64,000 nucleotides of DNA, from the NCBI GenBank assembly GCA_000004985.1, contig GG738850.1; one strand, 5' to 3'. Made by a program: the position numbers and the translations under genes. This stretch comes from Naegleria gruberi. Its lineage: Eukaryota. Shown here piece by piece: positions 4,846 to 61,271 of this stretch (its first letter is position 1; every line of letters begins with the position of its first letter). The notes beneath the pieces are model-generated. The model did not search any database, had not been told where the DNA came from, and worked only from the letters and a program-made list of their open reading frames with translations.

Positions 4846-5874
4846 TTACAGTTGTTGATTGGTATTATTCATTCGTTGTAAATATTCGTTCAATCTGAGC
4901 TGAATGACAAACTTATTGAGATGATAGACAAAATATTCGTCAGAGTTTTCCATTTTGATTTCGTGAAGATCTTTGAGTTGAATCCAAGGTTTGGACTTTT
5001 CTATTGAGCTGAGCTTGTTCATGATCAGTTGATGGTATTCACTTCGTTTCTCTTCAGAGGGAAGATGATTTCTCACCTTCATTAATTGATCTCTTTCCTC
5101 AGAGCCATTTTCAAACCAGATACGTGGGGGTTTTCCTTGAATTAATCTCTCAGTTTCGTAACACAATCTTAGTGAGTGGTAGTAATTCTTTTGGTAACCT
5201 CGTTTGATTTTACCCTCTCCTTGTTGTAATTGTCTTTTAGCAAATGCACAATGAGATGAAATAACCTTCTTATTTAAGAATTGAATGTTTAACTTTTTCA
5301 AAGGTTCCCATTCTCTTGATTGATATTTATATGGGAAGAAATCTGGAACGAATAATGTTTGAAATACGAAAGGATTTCCATGTAGACACAATTCCAAATA
5401 TTTTCCAATTTCTAATTAATTATTAGATTAATCCAAATAATATAAATATTAATATTATTATTTTGTTGTAATTAATAGTAATAAATTAATAATAATTATT
5501 ATAATAAATAATGATCTGATCAAAGTACACAACCTACCAAAACATGAAATATCATTTCCATCCTTTGTTACGGTACAAATTCCCTTATCAGCCAAATTCA
5601 ACACCTTTGCCTTGGCACTTCCAATGCTACTAATATCAACATATGATAATTTTGGTTCATCAATAGAAAAAGAAGGCATTGATAGGAATTGCTCACACGG
5701 TAACATGTAAATCATGACAAAATCAAAATCACTCTTATTTTCATTCTTTAAATTGTAGAGTGTTGATCCGACAGCTGTGATGAACAGTAATTTAGCCTTT
5801 GGTGAAACATTTTCCTTCAGGAAATCCTCACCCATCAATTTGATAGAATTTTCATCGAATTGTTTGTTGTTCAT
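4846..5874 (-). CDS. small Pol-beta-superfamily nucleotidyltransferase (about 300 aa), two exons: 5538..5874 and 4846..5411
   Basis: ATG at 5874-5872 after an A-run. The exon-1 motif ...AVGSTLYNLKNENKSDFDFVMIY follows the G-S-x(9-13)-D-x-D-x-V pattern of minimal nucleotidyltransferases (OAS/SMODS/predicted-NTase type). A 126-nt GTAGGT...TAG intron (5412..5537) joins ...DISCF to EIGKYLELCLHG... in phase. The C-terminal half has a KNYYHSLRLCYETERLI helix typical of the second domain of small predicted NTases. Confidence 0.5.
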
Positions 5875-5884
5875 TTTTTTTAAT

Positions 5885-7583: not shown

Positions 7584-7654
7584 GCGTCGATGGTTTAGTG
7601 GTAGAATACGGCGTTGCCATCGCCGTGACCCGGGTTCAATTCCCGGTCGACGCA
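7584..7654 (+). tRNA. tRNA-Gly (anticodon GCC)
   Basis: 71-nt cloverleaf. Acceptor GCGTCGA/TCGACGC; anticodon stem CGGCG/CGCCG with loop TTGCCAT; T-arm CCGGG-TTCAATT-CCCGG; discriminator A. A Pol III T-run (TTTTTT) follows 3' at about 7662. Confidence 0.85.
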
Positions 7655-37926: not shown

Positions 37927-37997
37927 GGGGGCGAGGGGGAATCGAACCCCCGGCCACAGCTTTGGAGGCTGCGATGTTACCATTACACCACCGCCCC
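37927..37997 (-). tRNA. tRNA-Trp (anticodon CCA)
   Basis: Minus strand GGGGCGGTGGTGTAATGGTAACATCGCAGCCTCCAAAGCTGTGGCCGGGGGTTCGATTCCCCCTCGCCCCC. Anticodon stem GCAGC/GCTGT with loop CTCCAAA. T-arm GGGGG-TTCGATT-CCCCC. 3' T-run. Confidence 0.85.
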
Positions 37998-38331: not shown

Positions 38332-41300
38332 ATGCCAGAGGTTGTCACTATTGGTAGCACTACTGCTGCCAAACAGACAATGGGCTTCAATGTTTCATTG
38401 TTGGTAAGTTATGGCAACTGACATGTAATCCTTAATATTAAATTCTCTAATTCACTTCTTGATGTTTGCCTATTTGCATGCTCATTAGAAAGGAGGTACT
38501 ATTACTCAAACAATTGTAAGTTTCGAATAACAATTAAACTAAACATATCCTAAGGTTGGCGCAATCATCTCTGGTATGGTTATTGCTTCCACAGTTGCCA
38601 CCATCTTGATGGTTTCCTTGATTTCCTACCAAAATCCAATTGCTGTAGATGACACAGCATCCACCTACAAGAACGTTGCTCTTTCCATTAATGTTTTATC
38701 TAACGATTATGATCCAAAGGGAAATAACATTTCATTGGTTCAAGTTCTCGTGTCTCCAAGTTATGGTTCTGCTTCAATTTCCTCTAATAGTCTCATTGTC
38801 TACAAATCAAATGGTACTTATGCAGGAAATGACACTTTCAGTTATCAAATTACAAATGGTTACTTGACAGCTAATGCAACAGTTGTTGTGAGTGTGGTCA
38901 ATCGTCCTCCAGAAGCTATTCCAATTGCTGTAACTGTCAGTAAGAATGTACAAAACACGCTCATTAACATCTTCAGTTATGTTGGTGATAATGATGAGCA
39001 AATTAGTGATCCAGACAGTGTCGATATTCTCTCTGCTGTTTCTTACTCGAATCAAACTATTGTTAGTGGCACAGAAGGTGGTTACGGAACAATCAAGATT
39101 GATTCATATAATGGTTATTATTATAGTCCAGCAAGTGGTTTTAATGGCGTTGAGCAGTTTGTCTACACCATTTCTGATGGTTATGATACATCTAGTTCCA
39201 CTATTACTGTAACTGTGGCCAATGACGCTCCAACTGCTGTTGATGATTCTTACAAGATTCCAAAGTATGCATCATTGGTTTTGGATGTTTTGGCCAATGA
39301 CTATGATGTCAATGGTGACGATTTCAATATTACAAGTGCTTTGGGTACTGGCTATGGTGCTGTTAGTGTTTCTGAGAAGTCCATTACCTACATTACTGCT
39401 GGTTCTGTATCTACCAAATACACCGATTCATTCGAATATACAATTTCAGATGGAGTTGCCACTTCATCTGCCATTGTAATCATCTCAGTTTACAATCAAG
39501 TTCCTGTTGTCTATTCCAAGACTGTTACTGTTGCCAAGTCATCCACTAATAATTCAATTTCAATTGATTATTATGATGCTGATAGAAGAGATTTAGTCAC
39601 TGTTAGTACTATTTCTCCATCATTGTCCTCTATTTCACCAATTGCTTACTTGCAATTGACCACCAGTTACAATCAATTATTCTTTGATTGTTGTGAATGG
39701 CTCACTGTTGAAACTAACAACTATACCATTCTTTTCACTCCAACTACTGATACTGTTTACACTCAAACTTTCACAGTTGTCTTGTCAGATGGCGAAGGTA
39801 CTGGAACTGGCACAATCACCATCCAAGTGGTCAATACTCCACCTGTTGCTGTTGATGATTCTGCTCAATGTAATAAGAATCAACAAGTTTATGTCAATCT
39901 CGTTGCCAATGATTATGATGAAAACAGTGGAGACACTGCCAAGATCAAGTTGACTTCAACCGGTTGGAATTCAACTACACTCTATGGAGGTTCTTTAACT
40001 ATTTTCAATTCTACACATGCTCTCTATGTTGCTCCAAGTGGTTTCTTAGGAACTGACTCTGCCACCTATGTAATTACTGATCAAAGTGTTGATTCTAGTG
40101 GTAATGCTGATTCCACTTCATTCTCTTCTGGTAAACTCTATGTTACTGTTATTAATAATGCTCCAACTCCTGTTGATGATTCATTCACCATCTCAAAGGG
40201 TGTTACCTCTACTTTGAGTGTATTAGATAATGATACTGATCCAAACGATGGTTCTGGTTCAATTTACATTATCAATTCTGTTACTGCCTCTTCTGTTAAG
40301 AATATTCAAGCTTCTATTGTTGCAACAAGTGGTGCAAGAGATACATTGTCTTATGTTGCTTCCAATGCTGAATATACTGATTATTTGACATATGATGTCA
40401 AAGATCAAGATGGTATGAAATCTACTTACAAGGCCACTGTTACATTGTATGTTATCAATGATGCACCTGTTGCTGTTGATGATGCCTACTCCACTTTGTG
40501 GAATAGATCAGTGGACTGCTCTGTTAAAAGCAATGATTCTGATAAGAATGGTGATCTGGATGATTCTACCATTAGTATCACCACTTCTCCATCTCATGGT
40601 ACAGTAACCATTTTGAATAGTGTTGTAAGATATACTCCAACCAATGGCTACGTTGGTACTGATACCTTTGCTTACAAATTGAACGATGGTAGCTCATTGA
40701 ATGCTGACTCCAACATTGCAACTGTAACCATCACAGTTTACAATAATGCTCCAGTTACCGCTGATGATTATATCACTACTCACTGGAGAAACCCAAGTGG
40801 TGTATTGGTAACTCCATTGTCCAATGATAGTGATCCAGATGGTGATGATTTGATTGTTGAATCTACAACTGCTTCTTCCTCTGTTGGTACTGTCACTGTA
40901 GCTGATACCACAACCATCAAATTTGTCCCAACCACTACTTCAGCCACCACAGGAACCAAATCATTCACATACTATGCCTATGATTACAATAAGAAAACTC
41001 TAGGCACTGTCTATGTAAACATCACCAATACCAAGCCAACTGCCAATGGTGAATCTTATACTCTCCATTGGGCTGCTTCAGCTACTTCTTTCTCAGTTAT
41101 GGATAATGATGTTGATGCTGATAGTGATACTATCTCTTTATACTCTGTTAGTGGTAGTACTGCTGCTGCTATCAGTGGATCTTATATCAAGTATACTCCA
41201 AAGAAGGATGGTGTCACTGATTCATTCCAATACGTGATTACTGATACTGTTACTCCATCAAATGCTGCTACTGTTACAGTCAGTTTTACAAACAGCGATA

Positions 41301-44300
41301 CTCCAAGTGCTTCTAATGTTGCTACTTCAATCCATTGGAGAACTTTGGCTTCTCAATCTAATTATCAAGATTTCACTGTCATGAGTTCGACAACTGACGC
41401 TGATGGTGATTCTCTCACTTTGTCTGTTACTACAACTGCCTCTGGTTTGTCTGGATCTTCTTGTTCCAAGACCAGTGATTCTGTTCCAAAGGTGAGAACT
41501 ACTGCTCCAACCAAGACTGTTGGTACAGTTGCTTGTTCTTATTCAGTTTCTGATGGTTTGGCTTCTAGTGGAACCAAGACTGCAACATTGACCATTACAA
41601 ACAATGCTCCAACTTGTTCAAACATGACTGTTTCATTCAATCCAACCTATGTTTCAACTGGTCAAAACTATTCCATTTCCTCCTATGTCACAGATGCCGA
41701 TTCCAATGATATTCCATATTTGGTGCCAGGAAGTGCAACCATCGTTGGCTCTTCCTATTCTGGTGATTCATTCACTATAGTTGGAAGTTATTTGAACTTT
41801 AAACCAAACAGCAATCTTGGTACTCGTACCTATGCCTACACAGTCACCGATGGTTTGGCCACATCTTCTAAATGTTACATTTCCATAATTGTCAGCTCTC
41901 TTAGTAGCACTAATTATTACCAAAGTTATGATGTCCATTGGAATGCTTCTAATTATGAAGTTCCAATCTTGACAAACTTGCCAACTTCAACTATTAAGGC
42001 AATTGCTTCTCAATCTTACTCAACTGTCACTTTGTCAGGTGGAAAGATTTACTTTACACCATTGAGACAAATCTATGTTGATACCTTCACTGTAACTGTC
42101 ACTGATACTGGTGTTGATAGTCCAGTTTCTGTTACCATTACCACTTACAATAATGTGCCAACTGCCAGTCTCTCCACTCAAACTATTACTTGGGGAAGTT
42201 CAAAGACACTCGACTTGTTGACTAATTATGCTGATGATGACTATACTGCTGGTAGAGAAAGCAAGGGAACTGTCAAGAGCATTGATACTTCATCTACTTT
42301 AGGTAGTGTCTCTTCAGTTTCTGGAAGTTCAGTAACTTACACTTCTCCATCTAAATATGTTGGTTCTGATACCTTTAAGGTAACTGCAACTGATGGTTTG
42401 GCAACAGTTACTTTCACAGTAACATTCACCATGACCAATACTGCCCCAGTTACCAATACCAAGTACTTTAATGTTCACTGGGCTACTCACAAGACTGGTT
42501 ATCAAATGGATTTGAGTACTGGTGTAACTGATGCAGAAGGAAATACTTTGACTTACTCAGTTACTTCATCAAGTATTTCTCCAACAACTGCTGGTTCAGT
42601 TGCATTGTCTACTTCTCCATATGCTGTTGCTACTGCTTCCAGTACTGTCTATTTGGGTGCTTTCACATTCACTTATGGAGCTAGTGACTCAATTGTGTCA
42701 ACTCCAGGTACTGTTTCTGTTACTGTTTATAATAACATGTCAACTCCAGTAGCAAGTACAGGAAGTTGCCATTGGAAGCAAACTGGTGTTACTCTCAGTC
42801 CATTCTCTACTTTTGCTCCAACCTTAAAGGATGGTGATGGTGATAGCTTGTCGCTTGTTAGTGCATCAGCTCAAAAGGGGTCAGTTTCAGTTGCTACTTC
42901 AACAATTACTTATAACGCTCCTGGAACTTACGTTGGTACCGATGTTGTTACATACAAATTCACAGATGGTGCTCAATCACTTCAAAGTACTGACACAGTT
43001 GTCAATGTCAATGTTTACAACACTGCTCCAGTATGTGTTGACAAGACTGCCACAACTCTTTGGACTACAGCTGTAACAGTTGACTTGTCCAGTGGTGCTT
43101 GTACTGATGCTGATACCTTGGATACTGCTTACTTTAATGGAGCTACTTCAAGTGTTGTTGGTGGAAGCGTTTCAGTTTCTTCCAAGAAAGTTACCTATAC
43201 TCCATCTTCAACTTCTTTGACATTTAGTGGATCAAGTGGTTATTACACTGCTACTGGTTCATTCCAATTCCAATGTACTGATGGTATGTCAACTGCTGCC
43301 AGTGCTGGTAAGGCTACTATCACTGTATATAACAATGCTCCAACTGGTACTGGTAATACTGTATCAGTCAACCGTGATTACACTACCTCCACTTATGATT
43401 TCACATGGGCTACCATTGCTACTGCTACTGATGCTGATGGAGATTCCATTTCTTATACTAACTTTGCCTCATCTGACTCTACCATCACAGTTTCTAATAT
43501 TGGTACAGGAATCAGATTGACCACAAGTAACAAACTTGTTTCTGGAACCAAGTATATTACATTCAAACTCTATGATGGTCTCCATTACAGTACTTCAACC
43601 TTAACATTCACTGTAACTTTTGTCAATACAGCTCCAGCTTGTGTTGCTTCTTCAGTTGCATTGAATAAGAAGGGGACTGTTGATTTGTCAACCTTGTACA
43701 GTGCTACTGATGCCAACAGTGATCCAGTCACATATTCAGTTGTTTCTAGCTCAGTTTCAAGTACCTATGGTTCATTGTCTGGTACTACTTTCACTGCTTC
43801 TTCCACAACTAGTGGAAGTACAACTATTAGTTACACTGCCACAGATTCTCAAGCCACAACTACTTGTTCCATCTCGGTTGTGATTAGTAACCAAATTCCA
43901 GTTGCTGATGATATCACTTATCAAATTGTTCCAGTTTCAACCAATTATGTCCACAAATTCACATACACTGCAACAGATGGCGACTCTTCAGATACATTGA
44001 CCTATTCTCAATCAAGCACAACTTGTTCATCATCTTTGGTTACTGCTTTGAATATCACCACTGCTGGTCTTATTACCTTTGTTAGAAAGTCAACTGCAGT
44101 TAGTGGAACTTGTACAATGACTCTTTTGGTTGTTGATAACAACTCTCCAACTGCTGGACAAGATACTGCTGTTGTGACATTTGTCATTTCTTCATCGTCT
44201 CCCGCTGCCAATGATGACAGATTCTCAATTAACCAAGGTCAAACTATCAGAATTTACAATTGGCAAATCCTCCAAAACGATTATGATGAATTTGGCTCGA

Positions 44301-45468
44301 ATACCACTTTGACCTTGACATCTATTTCATGCCCAAGCTCCTCCTATTGTCACGAAACTCCTAGACAAGTTACAGTCAATGGATTAGATGCTATTGAACT
44401 CGATTCGGATACTTCCACTTGTCAAGCTGACTCATTCCAATACACCATGAAAACTTCTTTGGGAACCACCAAAACTGCTACTGTTTACGTTGAATTCAAG
44501 AATTGCTACTGTTCTGCCAAGATTGACTTCCTTTTCTTGCTTGATTCTTCTGGTTCAATTGGTTCCACCAACTTTAACAAGATGAGAAGTTTGGCAAAGA
44601 GTATTACAGGTAGAATGTCTATTTCTTCTTCTGCAATTATGGTTGCCATTGCTAAATTCCACTCAAATGGTACCTTGGCTTTGGCACTGTCTTCCGATGG
44701 TACTACCATTAATAATACCTTGACTAATATGGCCTATGAAGGTTAGTATTATTTTCTTTAAGGATTTCTAATTTGGTATCTAATATTATTGAACAGCTGG
44801 TAACACTGCAACTATTCCAGGTTTGAGAGTTGCTGTCGATGCTTTGAGACCTGCCAATGGTGGTAGAGCAGATGCTGATAAGGTTATTTTCAGTAAGTTT
44901 CTTAATTTCAGATAATCTAATTATATTCTAAATAGTTTTGACTGATGGTTTAGCAAACGTTCCTTGTTCATGTAGTTCTTGTGTTAGTGAATACCAGGCA
45001 AAACCTAGTGTCTTCTCAAACTCTATTCAAACTAACATTTTAGGAAAGTATACAGGTTCTGCACTTACAACCCAATTACAAAATCTTTGCAAATATCAAT
45101 ACACAGATTCGACCGTATTGAGTGGAACTACATGCAGCTACTGCTCCACTAGTAAGACAGCTTACTGTTTGCCATGTTCTGATGCAGTGCCAATTGCTGA
45201 AAAGATTAATACATGGCAACGTAATTCTACTGGAATAGTTCCATATGATTTGGATAATCCTTACAATGGAAATAATAATGTCCAATGGAAGATTGTTGCT
45301 ATGGCCGTAGGTGATGCCATGTCCAATACTTATGGTGCTAGACAAATTGAAGGAATGAACTATGATCCAAGTAGAGCTATGACTGTTTCTTGGACTGATT
45401 TGGATTCAACAATGAGCGAAATCGTTGATCAATCTTGTAATCAAGTTTCCACAAGTGACGCTAGTTAA
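38332..45468 (+). CDS. giant membrane-anchored protein of about 20 cadherin/VCBS-like roughly 100-aa repeats plus a C-terminal von Willebrand A domain (about 2290 aa); exons 38332..38403, 38489..38515, 38555..44741, 44797..44892, 44936..45468
   Basis: ATG 38332 (MPEVVTIGSTTAAKQTMGFNVSLL). Two short 5' introns (85 nt and 39 nt, GTAAGT..AG) lead into the hydrophobic anchor VGAIISGMVIASTVATILMVSLI. Repeats of type TVTVxNNAPxAVDDSY...NDxDxDGD...YTP..GYVGTDTFxYxxxDG recur about every 300 bp. The vWA domain (DFLFLLDSSGSIGSTNF...) is split by 55-nt and 43-nt introns: ..AYEG / AGNTATIPGLRVAVDALRPANGGRADADKVIF / (I)LTDGLANV..., restoring the canonical vWA LTDG motif. Confidence 0.7.
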
Positions 45469-47598: not shown

Positions 47599-48342
47599 TT
47601 TTTGTTTTCTTCTTCGAAATTGAACAACAATTACAGCAATCTTGGTAAATGATGTTGCATCCCTCCACAAAAAACCGTTAATAAAATTAATTAAAAAATA
47701 AAATTCAAAAGAATAAAAAAAAGCCTTTTTCGCCATCACATTGATTTTATGTGCAGCACAACAAAATACGTAAAATAATTAGGCTTCACTTACGCCCTAT
47801 TACAATTACCATCACATCAAACAAATTATCATCATTTGTATGAATACACCCGCGGAACCCATCATAAATTAAAGCACTGTAGCTATCACACGAATATGTT
47901 TGGAACATGTAATACAATCTTCATGATGCAACAGCTTATTCTGGTCTTTAGAATGGGCTGTCGTCATTATTATTCCAATATTCATGAAGCTGGTTCACTT
48001 AATTTTAACACTTGACTTTCCGAGTTTGTATTTATTAACAATTATTGCATACGATTGGAATGGACAGCTCACTTTATTAGGGCTTGTGCTTGCCTTACAT
48101 GAAAGGTGTGTTATTGTAAAGCAAGTGGACTTTCCATTATCCAATCGTTTAGTTTGATGATTCGTCTACAATTAGTCAATACGGTTCACCTTTCTTCCAG
48201 TTTATGATACCGCAACACGATCTATTTGGTGTGGTGACTACAAACAATACAAGATCTAGTGAAGAATACTGCACAATGTTGGTGCATAAATTGAGTGAAT
48301 GGAAGAGACACTTTATTTCTCACTTTGAAAAAAACAAACAAT

Positions 48343-51300
48343 ATGTATTACAACAAACATTGTAGTACAAGAGTAATTCTTTCATTAATTAGCACAATTT
48401 TATTGTGTGTATTGATTGAAAGTATTATTGTAGAAGGTCAATGTCCTCATCAACAAGTTGGTTTGGTCAATTTTAACACATTAACTGGTTGGAATGTTGC
48501 CAATTATGATATTGTTATTACAAAAGCTGTCAAGTTAAATATTTCTCCTCCAAACAAATTACGTTCAATCACTGTTAAATCAGGTGGTTCTTTAATTTTT
48601 GATAATATTGATCTCAATTTGAATTTGAATTTCATTAGAGTTGAATCAAATGGTAGTTTTATAATGGGTAGTTCAAATTGTCCAATCACTTCAAAGGTTA
48701 TCTTGACATTGTATGGTGATCGTGTCAATAGTTCTATCAATGATCTTGGTAGTGATCCATTCGATGGAAGTAAATTGGGTTCAAAAGGTGTTGCTTTCTT
48801 GAGTGGATCTATTGTTCAAATTTATGGTAAAGTTGATGGACCAAGTTGGAGTGAAATTATCAAGAATTCCACCAAGGGAAGTTCACAACTTGAATTGAAA
48901 GAAGCTGTTCAATGGAGAGTTGGTGATTCAATTGTTGTTGCTTCAACAGATTATGGTGAATTATATGATTATAGAGTTGAAAAGAATGCTTCATTGGGTT
49001 GGATTCGTGGTGAACCATTTCCAAATCAAAATGAAGAGAGAAAGATTATTCAATTATTGAATGGAAACAAGACCATTATTTTAGATAGAGCATTGAATTA
49101 TACTCACTTTGCAAGTGTTGATGGAAAGATTCGTGCAGAAGTTGGTTTATTGACAAGAAGAATTGTTTTCAGAGGTGATGATTCATCTGAAAGTTCACTT
49201 TTTGGTGGTCACTTTATTATTCGTTTGGTTGATAAATTTAATATGGAAGGTGTTGAAATTACAAGATTTGGTCAACAAGGTTTAATGGGAAGATATAGGT
49301 ATGTTTGGTGTTGGTAATCATTTTTATTTAACTTGTATTTAATATTGTTTTTAATGATTTATTTAACTATTACTTATTATTCATTAATAGTTTCCATTTC
49401 CACTTGTTACAAAACAAACCATTTGGATTGAATTTCACAGTTAAGGATAATACAGTTCATCACAGTTTCCAAAGATGTTATGTTGTTCACGATACTAATT
49501 ATATTTTATTGAAGAATAATGTTTGTTATCGTGCATTTGGTCATATGTACTTCTTGGAAGATGGATCTGAAGTAGGAAATGAATTTAACAATAATTTGGG
49601 AGTTGATCCAATTCCAATCTCAAGAGAAAATCCTCGTCAAATCATTTTATCTGATTCTGATGTTTCAGTTTTTTGGATTACTAATCCAAACAATACATTC
49701 ATTGGAAATCATGCAGTTGGTGGTCGTTTCCCATTTTGGTTTACAATGCCAACATTCCCAACTGGATTGAGTGCAAATAGATACGCAGCTGGCTCTATTA
49801 ATCCAAGAACTGCTCCTCCAAAACCATTCGAAAACAATGTTGGTCACAGTTCATCAGGAAATGCTCTTCACATTGATGATATGGAAAAAGCTGATGGAAG
49901 TACAGAACTTGCTGGTTATTTTCCTTCAGGTGTTGTTGAAGCACTTTACAATGGATTTATTGCTTATAAGAATAGAGGATATGGTGTTTGGGCACGTGGT
50001 GGTTTACTTCGTTTCAAAAATTTATTCTTAACTGATAATAGAATTGCCATGAATTCTCCACCAGGACCAAGTATCATTCATGACAGTACTTTTATTGGTG
50101 AATCTGAAAATGTTGGTGAATTTTCATACAGACCAAAGATTGATCTTGGAAATAGAACAAGACCAGGTCAATATGTTAGTTCCAATTTGGATTTGATTAA
50201 GGGTTATGAAACTTATGATAATGGTGGTCCACAATACTTGAGAAATATCACTTTTATCAACTTTGTTACTGATTCATTCAAATATGCAGGTTCCTTATCT
50301 TCATTGAATAATTACTTTAAACATCAATCCAAAAACAGATATGCCAATTTAAAGTTTGTTAATGCAAACAGATATATGGTTTTCCCTTGGAATTATCCAA
50401 CTTATTATGATAATCACAAGGCAACTGCTTTGATGGATGTGGACGGCTCAACCACAAGTATTTCATCAATTGGTGGTTGGATCACTGGTAATGACACAAC
50501 CATGACATTCACACAATGTCAAGCAAGAACTGAATGGAATGCCTATCAATGTCCATTCTTTGGTGAATCTTTTGCTCAATTCAGAGTTGTTAACTGGAAT
50601 TTAACAAGTGTTAACACAACTGGAAGTGATGGTATTAGTAGACCTGATATTATTAACACTGGCAAGAGAGTTCCAAGAATGATTCTTGTTGATTTATTGA
50701 GAAATCGTGAATCCAATGTTATTGGTGCATTAATTGGTGCTACTCAAGAATATTTCATGCAAAGTAACCTGATTGCAAGAGGTTTCTATGGGCTTCGTTG
50801 GCCATACGACATTCCAACACCAAAAGATTTGAGTTTCTTCCTTGATTCATGTGCATCAAATGATTGGATTGTTGTTTCTGTTCAATATCCAAAAGGAACA
50901 ATTTTCAACATTAGATTCTACATGAGTCCAACAACAATTAACATGACCAGAACTGCAAACTTTACAACCATGTTGAGTGAGCCGACCAAATATTATTATT
51001 ATGATGATGCCACTGAACATTTGTACTTGAAGATCCAAAATAATGCACCAAGATCCTGGTATAGAGTTGTTGATAGCTTTGTTGATTACTATTCAACTGG
51101 TGTTGTTTATTTGAATGCCACATGTCCGAGAGGTATTTGTGCACCATCAAAATTCTCCAATCCAAGCAATGCAGGAACAACATATAAGACATTAATGAGA
51201 GAAGATAGATTTGTTGGAAGATTGGAAACATGTCAACAAGCAAGTGTGAAATCATTGGCTGCCAATTCCACAAGTGGAAGTGGTTATGTTTTTGCATTCT

Positions 51301-52283
51301 TGAATTCCAAAACAGCTTCTCTTGATTTTACTGTTCAACACAATTTGAACGATATTGTTACATCAATTGATATTGGATTTGGACTTGCAGGAAAGGAAGA
51401 ATACATTTCCACACCAACCTCAAAGATTATTCCCTATACTCAAAGCAGATTTGGTTACACCTTGTCATATGAAGAGTGGAATTATTTACTCCAAGGTAAA
51501 ATGTTTGTGAAATTATCAACTACTCAAAATGCAAATGGACATTTGAGAGCTCAACTCTATATTAACAACGCTACATCAACAAGTTGTAATTTACCACCTT
51601 TGGTTTCAAATGTTAAACCGTGTGATGCTTTGAATTTGAAGAATTCTTCCCATGTTATTTCAATTTATAGTGAAGGTCCAAAATTGACAAATGAATGGTA
51701 CATGTATGCCTATGTTCCAGCTGATATTAGAAATACATTTGTTAATGCTAGTTATGCACCAGCTATTTGTGGAAACTCATCAATGCATTTTGGTTTCAGA
51801 AAGGGAAATATTTCATTCAACAAGATTGGTTCCAATAAGATTTATGTAGATACCAGTATTTATCAATACTTTGAATTCTTTATCAAGACTGTCAATAATA
51901 CTGGAAGTGTTCCAAGTTTGACAATTGTATTTGGTTATTTGAATGATACAAAGGTTGTTGACTTTTCTAGAATCAACACACAAGCTAATCACACTCAATA
52001 TTTAAAGATTGATGGAAATACAGTGACTCGTGTGAGAATTCCACTTTCTGAACTTGGTTTTGCACCAATTCAAAACATTCACAGAATTATCTTGTACTTG
52101 CCAGATCAAACTAATTTCATTGAATTCTTGATGGATAATATGAGATTTGTTGGAGCACCAGCAACAGCTGAAAGCACAGCAAGAACCATGACTGTTTCTC
52201 AATGTAAATACTTTGGTGGTGTTTCATCATGTGGAAGTTTGGTAAATCCAGATCCAGATCCATTAGGTATTAGAAAATTGTAA
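48343..52283 (+). CDS. secreted G8-domain / right-handed parallel beta-helix protein (CEMIP/TMEM2-like architecture, about 1280 aa); exons 48343..49298 and 49391..52283
   Basis: ATG 48343 with signal peptide MYYNKHCSTRVILSLISTILLCVLIESIIVEG. A 92-nt GTATGT..TAG intron (49299..49390) joins ..FGQQGLMGRY to (S)FHFHLLQNKP.., recreating the G8 GRYPIHFH-type motif. Many PbH1-like NxxxxN/GxxxG turns follow, with N-glycosylation sequons. Confidence 0.6.
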
Positions 52284-52342: not shown

Positions 52343-54100
52343 ATGGGAAATCAAAAGAGTAAGGGAACTTCTCATCCCTCCATTCATACAAAAGACATCA
52401 AGACTGATACAAAATTGAGTTCTTTTCGGTTTTTCCCACTCAAGAGTTCCTATACTTGTGGTAATTCAATGGCAAGGTTGTTACCTCCTCGGGATGTAAT
52501 TTGCAAGTTAGCCTTTGATTTTTTGGAAATTTATGATATTAATCAATTGGCCCAGAGTTGTAAATTAATTTATTATTGGTTGGTTTGTGATGATGCGAAA
52601 AAGGGTGATGGCGGATTTTGGAAGAGGATTGCTAGACGAGATGGATTTTCTGAATTTAGGGAAGAATTATCAGGTGATGAATGTAGGAAAATGTATTGGA
52701 AATTGATGGAGAGTAGATTGATATTTGAGAAGGACTTGAATTGTTTGGAATCACAAACATACTCAATTCGTAATCTTCATTCGGAAAGTTATGAAAAGTT
52801 TAAGGAATTTGTGGCTACTATTAACCATGATTTTGGTCAATTGTTGTATATTTTAAGGAATACTAGGAGGAATGTATTGACTAGAGCATATATTGCAGTT
52901 TTTGGGCTTGTAGATCATTCAGATAGTTCATACAATGAAAAACTGGAGAAAATGGCAAGATTAGCCATGTTGGTTGAAGATGGAGCTATCTTTCAAACAA
53001 ATTTACAATATTTCGGTTTGGTAAAGAGTAATATTGTAGCTTGTTTGTTTAGCAATATCTATCTACGGTCAAATACTGAGCTCGAAAATCATTTTGTGAT
53101 TACTACTGCATTTAGGACCAATTATCCTTTGGAATCGAGTGCAATGTTTGTGGAGAGTGCAATTATTTTGTTAGAAAAAAGATTTAAAGAAACCCAAAGT
53201 GATACAGACCAGTTTTATAGATTATTTTGTACAGTTTTGGGGAATCCTGAAAAGAGAAAGATCATACGGAGGATTAATGAAATGAAAATATTCGTTCAAT
53301 TGTTTTTACAATACAAAGGAGGAGATGAGATGGTTGATATTATTTTAACGTTGTTACTGTGTGAAGACAAATGCGGACGCGAGTCAATCAGCTCAATTAC
53401 ATTTTCAGTTTTACAAGAATCAATATTTGTACATCCTTTACTATTAGAAGGATTAATGAAAGAGGAATTCTATTCGAATAATTCATGCCATCCTAATTAT
53501 TTAACTGTTGTTGGGAAATATATTTCCACTCCCGATTTGAATATTGATTGTGGATTAAGAGAAAGAGCTTTAAACCTTATGGTAAATATGTGTAATATTA
53601 AGAATAATAAGGATGTAAGAGATCCTTTCCTGTATTTCATTCCTTGGGCTGAGATCAGAAAGAATCAAGCCTTTCCAATTTTGGAATTCAAAGAAAATGC
53701 CCTCTCTGAATTGAATGATTGTATATTTGATTGTATTAAGAAAGATTTAATTGTTTACTACCTTGGTATTGTTATAGAACTAGCTGAACATGATTTGAAG
53801 AAAACTGTGGATAGTATGCTGGATATTAGAAACTTACCTTCTATTTCTCATACTTTTATTCGGATTTGGTCGGAATTATTTAGAATATTTGAAAGATATT
53901 CCAAAGTCGTTGAACCAAATGAAACAGAATTATTCTTTTCTCGATTGGTTGAACTCCTTCATTGCTGCTGCCAAGAATCAATGTATCAACAAAATATAAC
54001 CTTGTTGGAAATGATAGAAAAGCAATTGAAATGGATAAATCCTAAATATTCCAATACAGAACATGTAGAAAAGGTGTTGATATCCATTAGAACAAAGTGA
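52343..54100 (+). CDS. N-myristoylation-motif protein with an N-terminal F-box-like segment (585 aa)
   Basis: ATG 52343 after A7 gives MGNQKSKG, an MGxxxS myristoylation consensus. F-box-like VICKLAFDFLEIYDINQLAQSCKLIYYWL. Single exon. Only 59 bp downstream of the previous gene's stop. Confidence 0.55.
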   Translation: MGNQKSKGTSHPSIHTKDIKTDTKLSSFRFFPLKSSYTCGNSMARLLPPRDVICKLAFDFLEIYDINQLAQSCKLIYYWLVCDDAKKGDGGFWKRIARRDGFSEFREELSGDECRKMYWKLMESRLIFEKDLNCLESQTYSIRNLHSESYEKFKEFVATINHDFGQLLYILRNTRRNVLTRAYIAVFGLVDHSDSSYNEKLEKMARLAMLVEDGAIFQTNLQYFGLVKSNIVACLFSNIYLRSNTELENHFVITTAFRTNYPLESSAMFVESAIILLEKRFKETQSDTDQFYRLFCTVLGNPEKRKIIRRINEMKIFVQLFLQYKGGDEMVDIILTLLLCEDKCGRESISSITFSVLQESIFVHPLLLEGLMKEEFYSNNSCHPNYLTVVGKYISTPDLNIDCGLRERALNLMVNMCNIKNNKDVRDPFLYFIPWAEIRKNQAFPILEFKENALSELNDCIFDCIKKDLIVYYLGIVIELAEHDLKKTVDSMLDIRNLPSISHTFIRIWSELFRIFERYSKVVEPNETELFFSRLVELLHCCCQESMYQQNITLLEMIEKQLKWINPKYSNTEHVEKVLISIRTK

Positions 54101-54147: not shown

Positions 54148-56112
54148 ATGGATGAACATGATAGGAAGGCATTCCTTCCTTTTTGCTTTCCTACATTTAA
54201 AACGCTTCCCTGTAAATCATCAGATGGCGATCAAAATTCCGATGATGAAGAAAAATCTATGGAAAATAATTCAACGGTGATGAGAGAAAGATTTGATTTG
54301 AATGTTCTTTTACATAAAATTGATCCGGACTTGAATATATCAGTGGATGGAGCTAGAGAATTAGGACATTGCTTAATGATGCAAATGTGGTATTTAGTAT
54401 TGAAATGTCCGGAATTATTTCAACCAAAGAAGGAATTTGAAAAGGACGCCAGCTTGTTGGAGGACTATGTTGTTAAGAGACAACACGAGTATTCGAATCA
54501 AATATTTTATGATTTGTTGTTTTATGATGATTCTGTGAAAATGTCCAAGATGAAAGGAGGCGAATCAAAACAGAAAAAACAAAAGACCCAAAAGAAGGGA
54601 AATCAACAAACATTGAAATCATATTTGAGTGATTTGTTACGCTGTTGTTTGACAAGTGAATTGGCGAAAGGTGCTCTGGAAACTTTTGAACAATCTCTTT
54701 CGCTAGACCATAATATTTCTCCTTCTATCAGTCCAGAAGATTTGAAGGAATTAATATTGCAAATATTTACCTTCAATAATCCACCAAACATGAAGCAATG
54801 TAACATTGAGGATGTGCTTTTGTGCTTTGCATCAGTAATGGAATATTTGGCATTAGAAGTGTTGGAAGGATCTTGCTCTCTTACAAATCAAGCTGGATTA
54901 CAATTCATTTGGTATCCAGCCTTACAACAATCCATATATATAGATGAGGATTTGGCTTCTACATTATTTAATCATATTGGACTTATTCCTAGGGTCGATT
55001 TAAGATATTTTTACGGAGCTAATACTCGAAATGAAACTGTAAATTGGACTGGCATCTCAAATGATATTGTGTTTGAGATTTTATCTAAATTTGACAGCAT
55101 GAATGACTTGATGCAGATGAGATTGATCTGCAAGAGTTGGAATTATACAATTTTGACAAACATGCTCATTTGGAAGAATCTCTCAAGGAACGTAATGGTT
55201 AGAGAGGCTTTGTTTTCAGTGTGTGATACTAGTTTTTCTGCAGAAGAATTGGAAGAAACTCTAGGCAGAGCACAAGGTGAATTACCCAAATCAGCTCTTT
55301 CAAAGTTCCTCCTCCAAAAGAAAGATTGGTCAGGCATTTATTTCGGCAATGTCCACAATCATTTACAATTTGTAAAGGATTCTGAAAAATTACTTGAACT
55401 TGGATTTGAATGGCTTCCAGATCCAGGAGACCAATCATTGTCATATAGCGAGTTGAAAGAGGTTTTCCAAGAGTATATTGCAAAGGTTAGGTTCGGAGCT
55501 AGGAGTGATCCCCTAACTCAGCAACCTGAGGAGCCCAATTTTGAAAAAATCATGGTACCAAAATCTCACTTTGACGAATTCAACAAAATTGGAAGAAACT
55601 ACACATATCTTGGAATGATGGATTTTTCACAACTTTCATCCTTAGTTTCGTGTAGAAACTTCCCAAAATCTGGTTTATTGTATTGCTTTTATGATTTTAC
55701 AACTGAGATTGGATTTACACCTTTCTGTGAAGAAACAAACTTGATACAATTTACAATCAGCGATACTACCTTCCAAGTAGCAAAACCATCAGCTACTTCT
55801 TCGTCTTTCATGGATTCAGTGATGGTCAATTCCATTCCTTCTCATCCACTCTTATGGATGCAGTCACCATTCCTCAATAATTCAAGGAGTCATGTTTTCC
55901 CAAGTTTTGCTTTCGTTAAGAGTACTCGAATGGAAACCCTACCTGCAGATATTTGCCTGCTTTCTGATTCATTTTATTTGAATAGTGAAGACGAGGATGA
56001 GGAGGCTACTTGGACATTCGCAGTGTACATTTCACAAAATGATTTAAGAAACAGAAATTTCTCAAAAACAACTACCTTAACAGTGCCACACTACCAACAA
56101 TTTTTGAGGTAA
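54148..56112 (+). CDS. F-box protein containing a histone-H2A-like fold segment (654 aa)
   Basis: ATG 54148 after A9; the ORF-track start at 54097 is non-ATG. Residues about 210-290 (..NIEDVLLCFASVMEYLALEVLEGSCSLTNQAGLQFIWYPALQQSIYIDEDLASTLF) align with H2A alpha2-L2-alpha3 ([49 protein letters not shown]). F-box at about 330 (ISNDIVFEILSKFDSMNDLMQMRLICKSWNYTIL). Starts 47 bp after the upstream gene's stop. Confidence 0.5.
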   Translation: MDEHDRKAFLPFCFPTFKTLPCKSSDGDQNSDDEEKSMENNSTVMRERFDLNVLLHKIDPDLNISVDGARELGHCLMMQMWYLVLKCPELFQPKKEFEKDASLLEDYVVKRQHEYSNQIFYDLLFYDDSVKMSKMKGGESKQKKQKTQKKGNQQTLKSYLSDLLRCCLTSELAKGALETFEQSLSLDHNISPSISPEDLKELILQIFTFNNPPNMKQCNIEDVLLCFASVMEYLALEVLEGSCSLTNQAGLQFIWYPALQQSIYIDEDLASTLFNHIGLIPRVDLRYFYGANTRNETVNWTGISNDIVFEILSKFDSMNDLMQMRLICKSWNYTILTNMLIWKNLSRNVMVREALFSVCDTSFSAEELEETLGRAQGELPKSALSKFLLQKKDWSGIYFGNVHNHLQFVKDSEKLLELGFEWLPDPGDQSLSYSELKEVFQEYIAKVRFGARSDPLTQQPEEPNFEKIMVPKSHFDEFNKIGRNYTYLGMMDFSQLSSLVSCRNFPKSGLLYCFYDFTTEIGFTPFCEETNLIQFTISDTTFQVAKPSATSSSFMDSVMVNSIPSHPLLWMQSPFLNNSRSHVFPSFAFVKSTRMETLPADICLLSDSFYLNSEDEDEEATWTFAVYISQNDLRNRNFSKTTTLTVPHYQQFLR

Positions 56113-57096: not shown

Positions 57097-58704
57097 TTAA
57101 TTTCTTGGAACTGTTGCTGCATCAACAGTAAATTCCAATGACTTTTCAGGTGTGAAATTACATCTGCAAACATTAACTCCCAAACAATCAGGATCTACAG
57201 CCTTTCCACAATTACAATCACAACCATCGTTGGCTCCCCAGAATGTTTTATCACATGTCCATTCAGATGGTGCTTCAGTATTCTCGTAGAGACAGTTTCC
57301 ACTTGTATGAGAGCATCCACTCACAAATTTTCCTCTCACATGTGGACAATTTTGGATACTACTCAATTGAACTAGATCACAATCTGGATCATAGGCTCCA
57401 CAATTACAATGACAAATCTTTCCATCAGAATATTCCTCATGTTTACATGTCCATGACTCTGGCACTGAAACATCATGCAAAAATCTCGATTTCTTTGATA
57501 AATTTTCAGAACTGTAATACTTTTCAGTATTCCACGATTCAATCAATACTGGTTCTGATGTGTTATATTGATATCTTTCAATGAGATAGGCAATTTCCTG
57601 ACCTATTGTCTCATCATGTCTATAATAAATTTTGATATAATCATTGGCTGATCCATCAATCCAAGAACCAGAATTAACATAGAGAAAATCAGGTCCCTTC
57701 TTACTTTTCAATTCCTTGACAAGTGGAATGTGAGTGTGACCTTGGAGAACAATCTTGTCCATGTGAGGATCAATGTTTCTATGCAAAATGTCATCATAAT
57801 TGTTACAACTGGCTCTGACCATATCGTCCACTTCCCCAGATGAATAATCCTCTCTGTATCTACTTCTTAAATAGGAATATTTCTGATTGGCTAACTCAAC
57901 TGTGACATCTACACTTGAACATTCTTCACAATTAGCCCAAAAACAGGCACCTTTGAATATTGTCGAGTCATTGTGTGGATATTCACCAAAGGCTTTCTCA
58001 ATAGCCGAAACTCCAAGAATTTCACCAACTGGACCACTTGCCAAACTTCCAATAAAGAATGGAACAAAATCACAAATTTTCTGGAAGAATTCAGGAGCTG
58101 AAGTAACACCACTTGTAATACTTGCTCTTGCAATGAAATATCCAAAAGATCTGATTTTATCTGGATGTGGAGCATTGAAAAAATCACTCTTGTGTCCATG
58201 TTCAAATCTCACTCCCATATCTCTGTATTCCTGACTTGTATAAATCATATCCAATCCATATTCATTTTGTAAAATATCCACATCATGTTCTGTGAGTTCC
58301 ATATCATGATTTCCTTGAGTGAGAATTAATTTTGCTCTATTAACATCTAGAACATTTTTCAATAATTTAAGAATTTTTGTAACATCAACTCCATAACGAT
58401 CTTTGCTTCTAATCAATTCAGAATTCTTGATTGGCATCTCATCAATGTGATCTAACCAAAATTCAAAAATATCACCATTAATCACAACATCCATCAAAGG
58501 AGGTCCCTCTCCTCTCACCTTTGAATTTGGTTGAGCCAAATCTTGCAGAAAATGTGTTAACAATTCATGAGAAGTTTTCGATTGAAACCAAGGTCCTCCG
58601 ATATGCAAATCACTCACAACAATTGTTTGCCTGTCAGCAATCACCAACACTGTCAAGCAAAAAATCGCAATCAAGAGTGAGTATAAAATATTCTTCCTCA
58701 TCAT
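57097..58704 (-). CDS. secreted calcineurin-like metallophosphoesterase fused to two C-terminal CxCNCG...DPDC cysteine modules (535 aa)
   Basis: ATG 58704 after A8. Signal peptide MMRKNILYSLLIAIFCLTVLVIA. MPP motifs VVSDLHIGG, GDIFEFWLD, GNHDMEL, GHTH. The tail repeats CKHEEYSDGKICHCNCGAYDPDCD and CDKTFWGANDGCDCNCGKAVDPDCL. Confidence 0.7.
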   Translation of the reverse strand: MMRKNILYSLLIAIFCLTVLVIADRQTIVVSDLHIGGPWFQSKTSHELLTHFLQDLAQPNSKVRGEGPPLMDVVINGDIFEFWLDHIDEMPIKNSELIRSKDRYGVDVTKILKLLKNVLDVNRAKLILTQGNHDMELTEHDVDILQNEYGLDMIYTSQEYRDMGVRFEHGHKSDFFNAPHPDKIRSFGYFIARASITSGVTSAPEFFQKICDFVPFFIGSLASGPVGEILGVSAIEKAFGEYPHNDSTIFKGACFWANCEECSSVDVTVELANQKYSYLRSRYREDYSSGEVDDMVRASCNNYDDILHRNIDPHMDKIVLQGHTHIPLVKELKSKKGPDFLYVNSGSWIDGSANDYIKIYYRHDETIGQEIAYLIERYQYNTSEPVLIESWNTEKYYSSENLSKKSRFLHDVSVPESWTCKHEEYSDGKICHCNCGAYDPDCDLVQLSSIQNCPHVRGKFVSGCSHTSGNCLYENTEAPSEWTCDKTFWGANDGCDCNCGKAVDPDCLGVNVCRCNFTPEKSLEFTVDAATVPRN

Positions 58705-58800
58705 GTGTTATTTTTTTTCAAATATTGAAAACGATCTTTTTTGGCGCCAAACTTGATAAATAATTGAACTTGGAACTCTGTGGCACAACTCAAAAAAAAA
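58705..58800. promoter_or_regulatory. 96-bp shared divergent promoter between two metallophosphoesterase genes
   Basis: ATG 58704 (minus) and ATG 58801 (plus) are both flanked by poly-A runs. The whole intergenic interval is 96 bp. Confidence 0.45.
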
Positions 58801-59715
58801 ATGTCATACACGATATCAACTTCCATGGCCAACACGCTCGAATGCTCCATTGACAACCTGCCCATGATGGAAAAACATCCACATCACAAACTCACCATCG
58901 TCCACATGAGCGATAGCCACATTTCTCATCAATTTTTAAAATCCATTCCTGATGGTGATATTTTCATTCATAGTGGTGATATTTCGCATAAGAGTGAATG
59001 GTATGATTGGCAACAGAAAATTGAGAAGGAATTGGAGAAAAATCCAAATTTAAATAGAGAGGAATTGTATGAGTCAACTCCGAGTATTAGTTCTTTTAAT
59101 GAATGGATTGGAGAATTACCTCATCCTATAAAGATTGTAATTGCTGGAAATCATGAGATGGGATTTAATGGATTAACGAGGAGTTTTATTAGGAAAAATA
59201 TACTTCCGAATGCGATTTATCTTCAGGATCAAACATTGATCATTAATTATAAAGGACAGGAATTGTTGAGATTATATGGAACACCTTGGACAACTAGCTC
59301 AAATATGGGATTCTCAATATCAAGACACAGAATTAAAGACAAGTGGGAGAAGATTCCAATGGAAACAGACGTTTTGATTACTCATTTGCCACCATTTGGT
59401 ATAATGGATCTTGCATCAGGGAAGGATCCAGCTTTTTTCTGTGATTACTGCAAAAAGGAACACAAATATAGAAAACATTGGGGTAATGTAGAGCTGAGGA
59501 ATAAGGCAATTGAATTAAATTCCAAAGGTTGCTTACAGGCCCATCTATATGGGCATGTTCATGAGTTTCATGGCACAACTGTTGAGCCAATTACAAAAGA
59601 TAGCTCACGACCACTCCTCTACTCAAATGCAGCATCTGTTGGCTCTCATACTGATAAGAATATTTTGAAACCTAATGTTATAGAGATTCTCCCACGCAAA
59701 TTACAATTAATATAG
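58801..59715 (+). CDS. cytosolic metallophosphoesterase (MPP superfamily, 304 aa)
   Basis: ATG 58801 after A9; the ORF-track start at 58780 is GTG. Motifs LTIVHMSDSHISH, IHSGDISH, IAGNHEMG, THLPPFG, GHVHEFHG. Confidence 0.7.
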   Translation: MSYTISTSMANTLECSIDNLPMMEKHPHHKLTIVHMSDSHISHQFLKSIPDGDIFIHSGDISHKSEWYDWQQKIEKELEKNPNLNREELYESTPSISSFNEWIGELPHPIKIVIAGNHEMGFNGLTRSFIRKNILPNAIYLQDQTLIINYKGQELLRLYGTPWTTSSNMGFSISRHRIKDKWEKIPMETDVLITHLPPFGIMDLASGKDPAFFCDYCKKEHKYRKHWGNVELRNKAIELNSKGCLQAHLYGHVHEFHGTTVEPITKDSSRPLLYSNAASVGSHTDKNILKPNVIEILPRKLQLI

Positions 59716-59888: not shown

Positions 59889-61271
59889 TTATTGAAAGTT
59901 TTCGTATTCTGAGCTGTCACTTTCACTTTCCTCCTCTTCTAGTTTGTCCAATGCCACAAAATAATGTTTCAATTCAGGTTCATTTCGTAACTCGTCTGAA
60001 GCATATTCAATTAGGAGAGGATGAATTCTAACAGCTTCTAATACGACCTCCTTATCAGATTGCAATCTATTCGAAACATATTCAAGTATTTCGTGTTTCT
60101 GCGATAACAACTCTAAAACGAATGGTTTGTCATCTTTCAATTCATCACATGCATATTTAAAGTTGCTACATTCAACTTTTACAATTTCTCTTATAATTTC
60201 CTTGTTAGAATTCAAACATTCTTTCAATCTCTCAGAAATATAGGAAAATATGTTGCATTTCTGTTCTAACAGCTCCAAAACGAATTCCTTATCAGATTTC
60301 AATTCATCAGCTGCATATTCAAATAGATATCCACACTTTTTAACTGATTTCTTAACAATATCCTTGTCAGATTTCAATCCATCTGACACGTATATGAATA
60401 TTGTTTGTTTCTGCTCTAACAGTTCCAAAACGAATGATTTATCATCCTTCAATTCATCACATGCATATGTAAAGTTGCAACTTTCAAGCTTAACAATTTT
60501 TCTTATAATTTCCTTGTTAGAATTCCAAGTTTTTTTCAATCTCTCAGAAATATAGGAAAATATGTTACGTTTCTGTTCTGTCAGCTCCAAAACAAATTGT
60601 TTGTCATCTTTCAATTCATCACTGGTATTTTCAAAGTTAACAAATCCAGCTTTTACAAATATCTTCTCGACTTCTAAAATGTCTTTGTGTGATCTCAGTT
60701 CTTGTGATCGATAATGGAGTAAAGACGGATCAGTGGTTTCTAATGGTAAATCACTTTCGAATTCTTTTGGAATAATCTCCACAAGTTTTATATTAAATCG
60801 AGGAGAGGAGATCAACTTTTGAAGGAGAGGTTCATAATTCCACAGCAAGAACACCTTTGCCATATTTAAAACCATATCAACCGAACACTTTTCCATCATT
60901 TTACAAAGAATTGAGAATGCAACCTCTCTATTAGCCATCAAAGTTGCATAATTCCAATTCAATTCACGATCAAGATAAGCTCTTCCACTAATCACGATCC
61001 TATCTGATGAATCAGATCTTGTACCGAAAGATTTGACATAGCTCATTGCCATGATCATGTCTTTTCTAGTGAGTCGTTTGGGGAATAATTTCTGTTGTAA
61101 TAAGATGGATTTGTAATTTTCATCTAGTAAGAGAATGAAAGTGGAAGGAGTTTTGGTATTTTGTACCAATGGAATGGTACTTGTGTTGTTGTTATTGTTG
61201 TGCATGAGAGTGGTTGTATTAGTAATATTGTTATTGTTGTTGTTTGAGATGAGAGTAGTTGAGTGTTTCAT
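59889..61271 (-). CDS. DUF4116-repeat protein with an N-rich N-terminus (460 aa)
   Basis: ATG 61271 after an A-run. At least four tandem roughly 45-aa units of the form F/YACDELKDDKxFVLELLEQKxxIFxYVSxxLK (DUF4116 signature ya.deLk.Dkefvleav). Confidence 0.65.
   Translation of the reverse strand: MKHSTTLISNNNNNNITNTTTLMHNNNNNTSTIPLVQNTKTPSTFILLLDENYKSILLQQKLFPKRLTRKDMIMAMSYVKSFGTRSDSSDRIVISGRAYLDRELNWNYATLMANREVAFSILCKMMEKCSVDMVLNMAKVFLLWNYEPLLQKLISSPRFNIKLVEIIPKEFESDLPLETTDPSLLHYRSQELRSHKDILEVEKIFVKAGFVNFENTSDELKDDKQFVLELTEQKRNIFSYISERLKKTWNSNKEIIRKIVKLESCNFTYACDELKDDKSFVLELLEQKQTIFIYVSDGLKSDKDIVKKSVKKCGYLFEYAADELKSDKEFVLELLEQKCNIFSYISERLKECLNSNKEIIREIVKVECSNFKYACDELKDDKPFVLELLSQKHEILEYVSNRLQSDKEVVLEAVRIHPLLIEYASDELRNEPELKHYFVALDKLEEEESESDSSEYENFQ

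Follow-up and report, generated by a model that had tools for sequence, protein, structure and literature searches.

The sequence analyzed here is a 64,000-nucleotide stretch of Naegleria gruberi contig GG738850.1 (assembly GCA_000004985.1), hereafter called the window. At 54148 on the plus strand, an open reading frame (ORF) read from the raw DNA begins with ATG and runs to a stop codon at 56110-56112, encoding a protein of 654 amino acids (aa), hereafter the window protein. Its domains follow one another in the order H2B-like fold, H2A-like fold, F-box, helical linker, and YwqG/DUF1963 domain, the last a member of the TYPP superfamily (Table 1). An earlier note on this DNA had described an H2A-like fold inside an F-box protein, and it had overlooked the C-terminal YwqG/DUF1963 domain. 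With high confidence, we take the N-terminal part to be a real H2B-H2A-derived histone doublet, to which an F-box and a TYPP domain have been joined. Most likely, the doublet is a protein-docking module of an SCF (Skp1-Cullin-F-box) ubiquitin ligase adaptor rather than a nucleosomal histone.

The gene belongs to a family. An exhaustive phmmer search found 13 relatives, the best of which aligned in one stretch over aa 45-641 of the window protein (E = 1.7e-71). A word-indexed protein search gave no match with either the window protein or the family alignment, though the relatives were present in the same collection. The named relatives are exclusively from Heterolobosea (several paralogues in N. 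gruberi, one in Naegleria lovaniensis, and several in Willaertia magna), and they are labeled in the databases merely as "F-box domain-containing" or hypothetical proteins. The window protein is collinear from end to end with N. gruberi proteins of 666-673 aa, and a family hidden Markov model (HMM) matched it at 663 bits and found no second family member within the 64-kb window. The gene is genuine and not an artefact, because its ORF is uninterrupted, the same architecture is found in N. gruberi, N. lovaniensis, and W. magna, and its neighbors are ordinary cellular genes. Some database models in the family look like gene-model problems and not biology. Proteins P0003 (241 aa) and P0007 (420 aa) are one family member called as two proteins on the same 2730-nt ENA contig, and P0016 (N. 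gruberi XP_002674684, 719 aa), which represents the same gene, carries in its model an unrelated tail of ~110 aa.

Table 1. Features of the histone doublet-F-box-TYPP gene in the window (pLDDT, predicted local distance difference test)
Feature	Residues (aa)	Coordinates	Strand	Basis or remark
Complete single-exon gene	654 in all	54148..56112	+	one unbroken ORF
H2B-like histone fold	47-185	54286..54702	+	
Family-specific insertion of ~70 aa in H2B-like alpha2/L2	86-153	54403..54606	+	AlphaFold2 secondary structure; same position across the family
Lys-rich cluster, KMSKMKGGESKQKKQKTQKK	131-150	54538..54597	+	sequence reading
H2A-like histone fold	193-277	54724..54978	+	family profile, AlphaFold2 model, alignment to H2A
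F-box	302-347	55051..55188	+	Pfam F-box-like PF12937
Predicted helical linker	348-465	55189..55542	+	AlphaFold2 helices, pLDDT mostly <50
C-terminal beta-rich YwqG/DUF1963 (TYPP) domain, degenerate in the window protein	~466-654	55543..56109	+	

Smith-Waterman alignment of the window protein with human H2A gave a score of 46 over 46 ungapped residues (window 228-273, H2A 52-97), in which window residue n lies opposite H2A residue n-176 across alpha2-L2-alpha3. The same score was reached by 5 of 500 shuffles. The earlier note had proposed a match to this part of H2A on the basis of motifs that we located as ASVMEYLALEVLEGS at aa 228, AGLQF at aa 249, and IWYPALQQSIYIDEDLASTLF at aa 254. The two long motifs do occupy homologous positions in the ungapped alignment, and the match was confirmed through the family profile (see below). 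The AGLQF match, on the other hand, proved to be a coincidence at a nonhomologous position. These residues (aa 249-253) lie in loop L2 opposite H2A N73-R77, where they replace the "NKKTR" DNA-binding loop, and the site homologous to the "AGLQF" that precedes H2A alpha1 reads PSISPEDLKELIL in the window protein and LTFKIEELRDMVL in P0001. As judged by sequence, the H2A signature (LEYL.AE.LELAGN..RD ... DEEL) is present in the window fold and clearer in the homologues. For instance, P0001 carries LLEYLAADMIELGGNAARD at this signature and P0004 carries DYLIAEVVELAGNASRDN. In the family alignment the histone motifs are far more canonical in the relatives than in the window protein, the most degenerate of all family members. 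The H2A-like segment is thus kept, in more canonical form, in the heterolobosean relatives.

The upstream half of the doublet weakly resembles H2B. In the window protein, "IDPDLNIS" (H2B "HPDTGIS") and "TSELAKGA" (H2B "PGELAKHA") are weak matches that are nevertheless collinear with H2B, and the putative alpha1 reads LLHKIDPDLNIS compared to VLKQVHPDTGIS in H2B. Relative P0004 is a good example of the more canonical form, since it carries KYLPGEVAKHAHNEAVKFV in its upstream part compared to H2B LLLPGELAKHAVSEGTKAV, "VLNQVHYDMKI" at the alpha1 segment just mentioned, and "KYLPGEVAKHA," a near-canonical H2B alphaC motif.

Profile searches were consistent with both halves. First, the full-family profile had as its best PDB matches the engineered single-chain H2B-H2A chimeras (E = 9e-12). 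Second, a profile from alignment A3, which is the doublet region alone (window aa 45-290), matched 7ybf_A at E = 1.1e-14 and 2jss, 4m6b, and 6k0c at ~2e-13, compared to ~1e-10 to 1e-11 for H2A or H2A.Z alone. The profile alignments span from H2B alpha3/alphaC to H2A alpha3/alphaC, and the chimeras outscored H2A alone by ~10 bits against the family profile. Third, hhalign of A3 against a concatenate of human H2B and H2A gave a probability of 97.8% (E = 1.2e-12). Finally, a leave-one-out profile, from which the window protein was excluded, covered window aa 49-290 at 122.6 bits and scored human H2A at 43 bits and H2A.Z at 45 bits. The H2A-like assignment of the earlier note therefore fared differently with the two kinds of histone profile: the family-derived one recovered H2A at E ~1e-10, whereas Pfam gave no match at E ≤ 10. 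None of the 15 family members was matched by the Pfam Histone model at E ≤ 0.01.

The window protein alone gives suggestive evidence, and the family makes the case decisive. A chance resemblance to H2A would agree with the window protein alone not being significant against any histone profile and with a pairwise score that 1% of shuffles reached, and an assembly or annotation artefact would agree with the many reported eukaryotic histone "fusions" that are misannotations (PMC9145170). These explanations are effectively refuted by the family-profile matches, the leave-one-out profile, and a continuous ORF conserved across species, and they seem to us scarcely credible.

Structure prediction with AlphaFold2 was uninformative from the single sequence (pLDDT 34). 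With the 15-sequence family alignment, pLDDT rose to 70-89 for aa 50-115 and 155-270. The helices of the H2B-like fold were alpha1 at 51-58, alpha2 at 66-85, alpha3 at 156-167, and alphaC at 170-185, and those of the H2A-like fold were alpha1 at 196-206, alpha2 at 220-248, alpha3 at 256-265, and alphaC at 267-277, with L2 at 249-255. This is exactly the helix set expected of two histone folds, and the H2A-like helices predicted at 196-277 bear out the histone fold that the earlier note had proposed here. In the model, the H2B-like fold pairs with the H2A-like fold as in an H2A-H2B dimer. The ~70-aa insertion was predicted to form an extra helix (aa 95-122) followed by a disordered Lys-rich stretch (pLDDT <50 for aa 118-152). 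This stretch contains "KQKKQKTQKK" in the window protein and "KKRKV/KKRKI" in the homologues, and by its resemblance to SV40-type signals the cluster is a possible nuclear localization signal.

Foldseek searches with the model matched single-chain H2B-H2A structures at template modeling (TM) scores of 0.70-0.79 and the histone domain of Son of Sevenless (SOS) at 0.77-0.82. The Melbournevirus doublet was matched as well, and the matches in a viral structure library were giant-virus H2B/H2A fusion proteins. SOS, a Ras exchange factor, is a cellular signaling protein with tandem histone folds (PDB 1q9c, 3ksy) to which the window protein can be likened by fold. These folds form a domain that lies against the catalytic unit of SOS and keeps it autoinhibited, and by analogy the doublet could be an intramolecular regulatory module, one whose release would unmask the TYPP domain or the F-box. 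Such a role seems unlikely. The AlphaFold2 model shows no confident interdomain contacts (predicted TM score [pTM] 0.46; linkers with pLDDT <50), the folds of the SOS module do not, by sequence, follow an H2B-H2A order, and a conserved surface acidic patch, described next, suggests an external ligand. Unlike SOS, the window family has H2B-then-H2A sequence signatures, the acidic patch, and an F-box.

The charge of the doublet sets it apart from canonical histones. Its isoelectric point (pI) was 4.4-5.7 in all 10 members examined (5.21 in the window protein), compared to 10.2 for the canonical H2B+H2A core. The H2A DNA-contact positions are basic in 0 of 10 members for R77, 0 of 10 for K75, 1 of 10 for R42, and 2 of 9 for R29. 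The acidic-patch positions, in contrast, remain acidic in most cases: E56 in 9 of 10 members, E61 in 8, E64 in 7, D90 in 10, E91 in 5, and E92 in 10. The window protein retains all six equivalents (E232, E237, E240, D266, E267, and D268), and the hydrophobic core of the doublet is kept. The H2A-like fold has no basic N-terminal tail, its alpha1 beginning ~10-25 residues after the H2B-like alphaC, and it has no docking domain either, since hmmalign left H2A residues 98-129 unaligned and a family motif followed by the F-box stands there instead. We infer that the doublet no longer wraps DNA, because of its acidic charge, the lost DNA-contact arginines, and the missing tails, and that the dimer core and a protein-binding surface have been preserved.

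These features bear on whether the protein might be a chromatin-incorporated histone variant similar to macroH2A, in which the doublet would replace an H2A-H2B dimer and tether an SCF ligase to chromatin. In favor of this, the doublet shares its fold and subunit order with H2B-H2A dimers and with nucleosome-forming viral doublets, the acidic patch is retained, and the Lys-rich cluster could give some DNA affinity. However, the doublet is acidic (pI ~5 compared to 10.2), and the DNA-contact arginines of L1/L2 and alpha1 are gone in nearly all members. Past the H2A-like alphaC there is "P.VD.NYFYG" in place of a docking domain, and the ~70-aa insertion breaks the H2B-like alpha2/L2, which in H2B is the region of the four-helix bundle with H4. 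Incorporation into chromatin is, on this evidence, highly unlikely. Histones that carry large appended domains, such as macroH2A, share with the window protein the covalent linkage of a histone fold to a nonhistone domain. In macroH2A, however, the histone is a single basic H2A that has a docking domain and is incorporated into nucleosomes, whereas the window protein carries an acidic fused pair without such a domain.

The F-box was detected by Pfam F-box-like PF12937 at aa 305-347 (E = 2.8e-6; 27.4 bits against a gathering score of 24.3) and by PF00646 at E = 0.0019, and the F-box-like domain is present in 14 of 15 family members. The earlier note had placed an F-box about 40 residues downstream of the H2A-like fold. 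The domain is real, and the distance is shorter, as the F-box begins ~25-30 residues past the H2A-like alphaC. The conserved family motif "P.VD.(N)YFYG" lies in between. No Pfam match was found in the linker (aa 348-465). At the C terminus, DUF1963 gave a sub-threshold Pfam match at aa 482-525, and the domain matches DUF1963/YwqG by profile and by fold. The GGxP motif and a conserved Gln, which Burroughs and Aravind count among the characteristic features (PMC4275035), are kept in P0004, P0008, P0010, and P0012 ("GGNP," "GGFP," and "QIN"). In P0005, "QIN" is kept and "GGIL" replaces GGxP. The window protein has lost both GGxP and the "QIN" Gln, as have the N. gruberi relatives closest to it ("EKIMVP" and "GMMDF"). 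Chaperone-like binding of extended peptides has been proposed for the TYPP fold, and the YwqG family has been noted in "a small group of eukaryotes," with YwqG-BRCT fusions in bacteria (PMC4275035).

Relatives that share the F-box and the C-terminal part alone were also found. P0009 and P0010 have an unknown-F-box-DUF1963 arrangement, and P0011 has a BRCT-F-box-DUF1963 arrangement. P0011 is a 576-aa protein from an ENA metagenome contig, and P0009 and P0010 come from JGI metagenome contigs. Because the N-terminal module varies among relatives, the F-box and TYPP domain seem to form a conserved core with an exchangeable N-terminal module. Both N-terminal modules that were identified, the histone doublet and BRCT, are of a chromatin or DNA-damage type. 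The placement of a candidate substrate-binding domain C-terminal to an F-box is shared with F-box proteins that have a receptor domain of bacterial ancestry, here from the TYPP superfamily (YwqG/DUF1963, PDCD2, and Tsr4), and the YwqG/DUF1963 domain is the more conventional candidate for substrate binding in this F-box protein. When open-access papers and bioRxiv were searched by concept and by N. gruberi locus tag, neither an F-box-TYPP nor a histone-F-box-TYPP architecture was found described. The view of the earlier note that the architecture is unusual thus holds, with an H2A-derived fold and a real F-box in one polypeptide and no paper found that describes the combination.

The gene immediately upstream (52343-54100, plus strand) is a 585-aa ORF that ends 47 bp before the doublet gene and is unrelated to its family. 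The earlier note gave this spacing correctly and also called the upstream gene F-box-like, for which no support was obtained: no Pfam domain was found in its protein at E ≤ 0.01, and no F-box was found by Pfam at E ≤ 10, with the whole protein or a 65-aa segment, or by hhalign against the family. To the eye alone, and without profile support, aa 46-95 of this protein look F-box-like.

These results can be combined into a mechanism. The gene product would be a substrate receptor of an SCF-type ubiquitin ligase, in which the F-box would recruit Skp1-Cullin, presumably by binding Skp1. The N-terminal H2B-like/H2A-like single-chain pair would pack as in the H2A-H2B dimer and form an acidic H2A-H2B look-alike, a docking or decoy surface that is probably nuclear. 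It would bring the ligase to proteins that bind H2A-H2B or the acidic patch, the presumed partners being chaperones, importins, and chromatin factors, or it would present these proteins as the presumed substrates. The TYPP domain would add a second, peptide-binding site. We give this mechanism, an SCF receptor with an H2A-H2B look-alike as its docking module, an even chance of being correct, and the whole account of structure, evolution, and mechanism together a slightly better than even one. The earlier note had suggested chromatin- or H2B-directed ubiquitin targeting. Targeting by pairing with free H2B is unlikely because the doublet already holds its own H2B-like partner directly upstream in the same chain, and targeting of chromatin by nucleosome-like binding is unlikely given an acidic doublet that has lost the basic DNA-contact residues.

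Several observations weigh against this account. First, neither the Pfam Histone model (PF00125), searched with the whole window protein or with fragments, nor a phmmer search of the PDB gave any match at E ≤ 10, so the histone assignment of the window protein is transitive, made by sequence through the family. Second, the H2B-like half is weak by sequence, as human H2B alone scored 6.2 bits compared to 4.5 for the best of 200 shuffles. The weak assignment of this half rests on collinearity, the PGELAKHA-like motif, the ~10 extra bits of the chimeras, and the predicted structure. Third, the AlphaFold2 model as a whole has a mean pLDDT of 55 and a pTM of 0.46, and it was built from a shallow alignment of 15 sequences. 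Fourth, retention of the acidic patch could be residual ancestry rather than selection. Finally, the F-box lacks the canonical Leu-Pro start ("IS" in the window protein), and with the loss of GGxP and the Gln the peptide-binding role of the window TYPP domain may be altered.

The doublet can be compared with fused histones elsewhere. Engineered single-chain H2B-H2A and H2B-H2A.Z proteins (e.g., PDB 7ybf, 2jss, 4m6b, and 6w4l) are artificial and consist of canonical histones, whereas the window gene is natural and highly diverged. The giant-virus doublets (Marseilleviridae, e.g., Melbournevirus; PDB 7n8n and 9cvt) have the same order and junction as the window doublet, and they package the viral genome into nucleosome-like particles (PMC11222145). 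Unlike the window doublet, they are basic and keep the KKxR L2 DNA contacts, and the window protein differs from them further in its 70-aa insertion, its fused F-box and TYPP domain, and its position among cellular genes. A search with a five-sequence H2A-like alignment found 14 giant-virus loci in IMG/VR (L001-L014). Doublet ORFs of H2B-H2A order, 216-339 aa in length, account for 12 of the 14, and L005 (315 aa), L006 (334 aa), and L008 (339 aa) have extra C-terminal sequence past the doublet.

A viral source for the doublet must be weighed, namely the transfer of a giant-virus H2B-H2A doublet gene to a heterolobosean ancestor and its fusion to an existing F-box-TYPP gene, an origin that is compatible with the docking mechanism. 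H2B-to-H2A fused doublets have otherwise been confirmed only in Nucleocytoviricota (PMC9145170), and Naegleria-group amoebae have been discussed as known or potential giant-virus hosts (PMC11702301). The junction is also as in viral doublets, with the H2B alphaC followed after ~22-26 aa by "L[QT]F" of H2A alpha1 and no H2A N-terminal tail; however, the engineered single-chain H2B-H2A has the same junction, and the geometry may be convergent. The best viral doublets scored 50.6 and 49.5 bits against the family profile, compared to 48.0 for the human H2B+H2A concatenate, but such differences are trivial and uninformative on host versus virus. Between the doublet and histones, 50-80 positions were alignable. 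The locus, moreover, lies among ordinary cellular genes in DNA of uniform GC content. We regard viral capture as possible but doubtful, the alternative being a fusion of the host's own histone genes. A more specific scenario, which we consider rather improbable, is that a captured viral doublet, stripped of DNA binding, was reused as an H2A-H2B mimic that lets the SCF ligase dock on, or ubiquitylate, the histone-handling machinery (chaperones, importins, and acidic-patch readers) of the cell or of an infecting virus.

The 64-kb window is a piece of eukaryotic chromosome with few introns and ~34% GC. An exact-sequence search for seven of its proteins in a collection of 15 billion found none of them, and the identities of its M1 aminopeptidase, given next, place the source in the Naegleria clade of Heterolobosea. 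Its genes encode a GBF1-type Sec7 protein, an M1 aminopeptidase (69% identical to that of Naegleria fowleri and 54% to that of W. magna), leucine-rich repeat proteins, a kinase, a ribulose-phosphate 3-epimerase, a Cys/Met pyridoxal phosphate enzyme, and a trypsin-like protease. Two intron-less tRNA genes are present, tRNA-Gly(GCC) at 7584-7654 (plus strand) and tRNA-Trp(CCA) at 37927-37997 (minus strand). At 5777-7423 (plus strand), a 548-aa ORF contains an RNase H domain (E = 6e-11) as its sole detected domain. This ORF may be what is left of a retroelement, or it may be an RNase H1-like gene of the cell. At 38576-44746 (plus strand), a 2056-aa ORF contains 12 Big_9 "bacterial Ig" repeats, bacterial cadherin-like domains, and the start of a VWA domain at its end, a bacterial-style adhesin architecture on a eukaryotic contig. 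Two neighboring plus-strand frames, at 48295-49317 (a G8 domain and the first 37 positions of a CEMIP beta-helix) and 49404-52283 (the remaining CEMIP beta-helix, CEMIP_X, and a CHRD domain), look like the two parts of a single CEMIP/TMEM2-like gene with a short intron between them. Downstream of the doublet gene, two divergent calcineurin-like metallophosphoesterase genes stand head to head 75 bp apart (57097-58704, minus strand, and 58780-59715, plus strand), the larger of which has a Cys-rich C-terminal extension. A 460-aa protein encoded at 59889-61271 (minus strand) has five DUF4116 repeats (E = 1e-54) and an Asn-rich N terminus.

Among cellular eukaryotes, this would be the first fused histone doublet to be confirmed. 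One large chromatin survey, which relied on Pfam and included N. gruberi, reported H2B+H2A doublet genes for giant viruses only, and surveys of this kind miss the family, whose members escape the Pfam Histone model. Fused doublets are central to the debate over whether viral histones are relics of an early nucleosome or later acquisitions. The family would also put the H2A-H2B dimer surface to a new use, in which a ubiquitin-ligase adaptor has it built in as a docking module that retains the acidic patch and has given up DNA binding. The window protein is predicted to contain a natural, monomeric, non-DNA-binding mimic of H2A-H2B, which can be tested for interactions with histone chaperones and acidic-patch binders, and N. 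gruberi can be cultured axenically.

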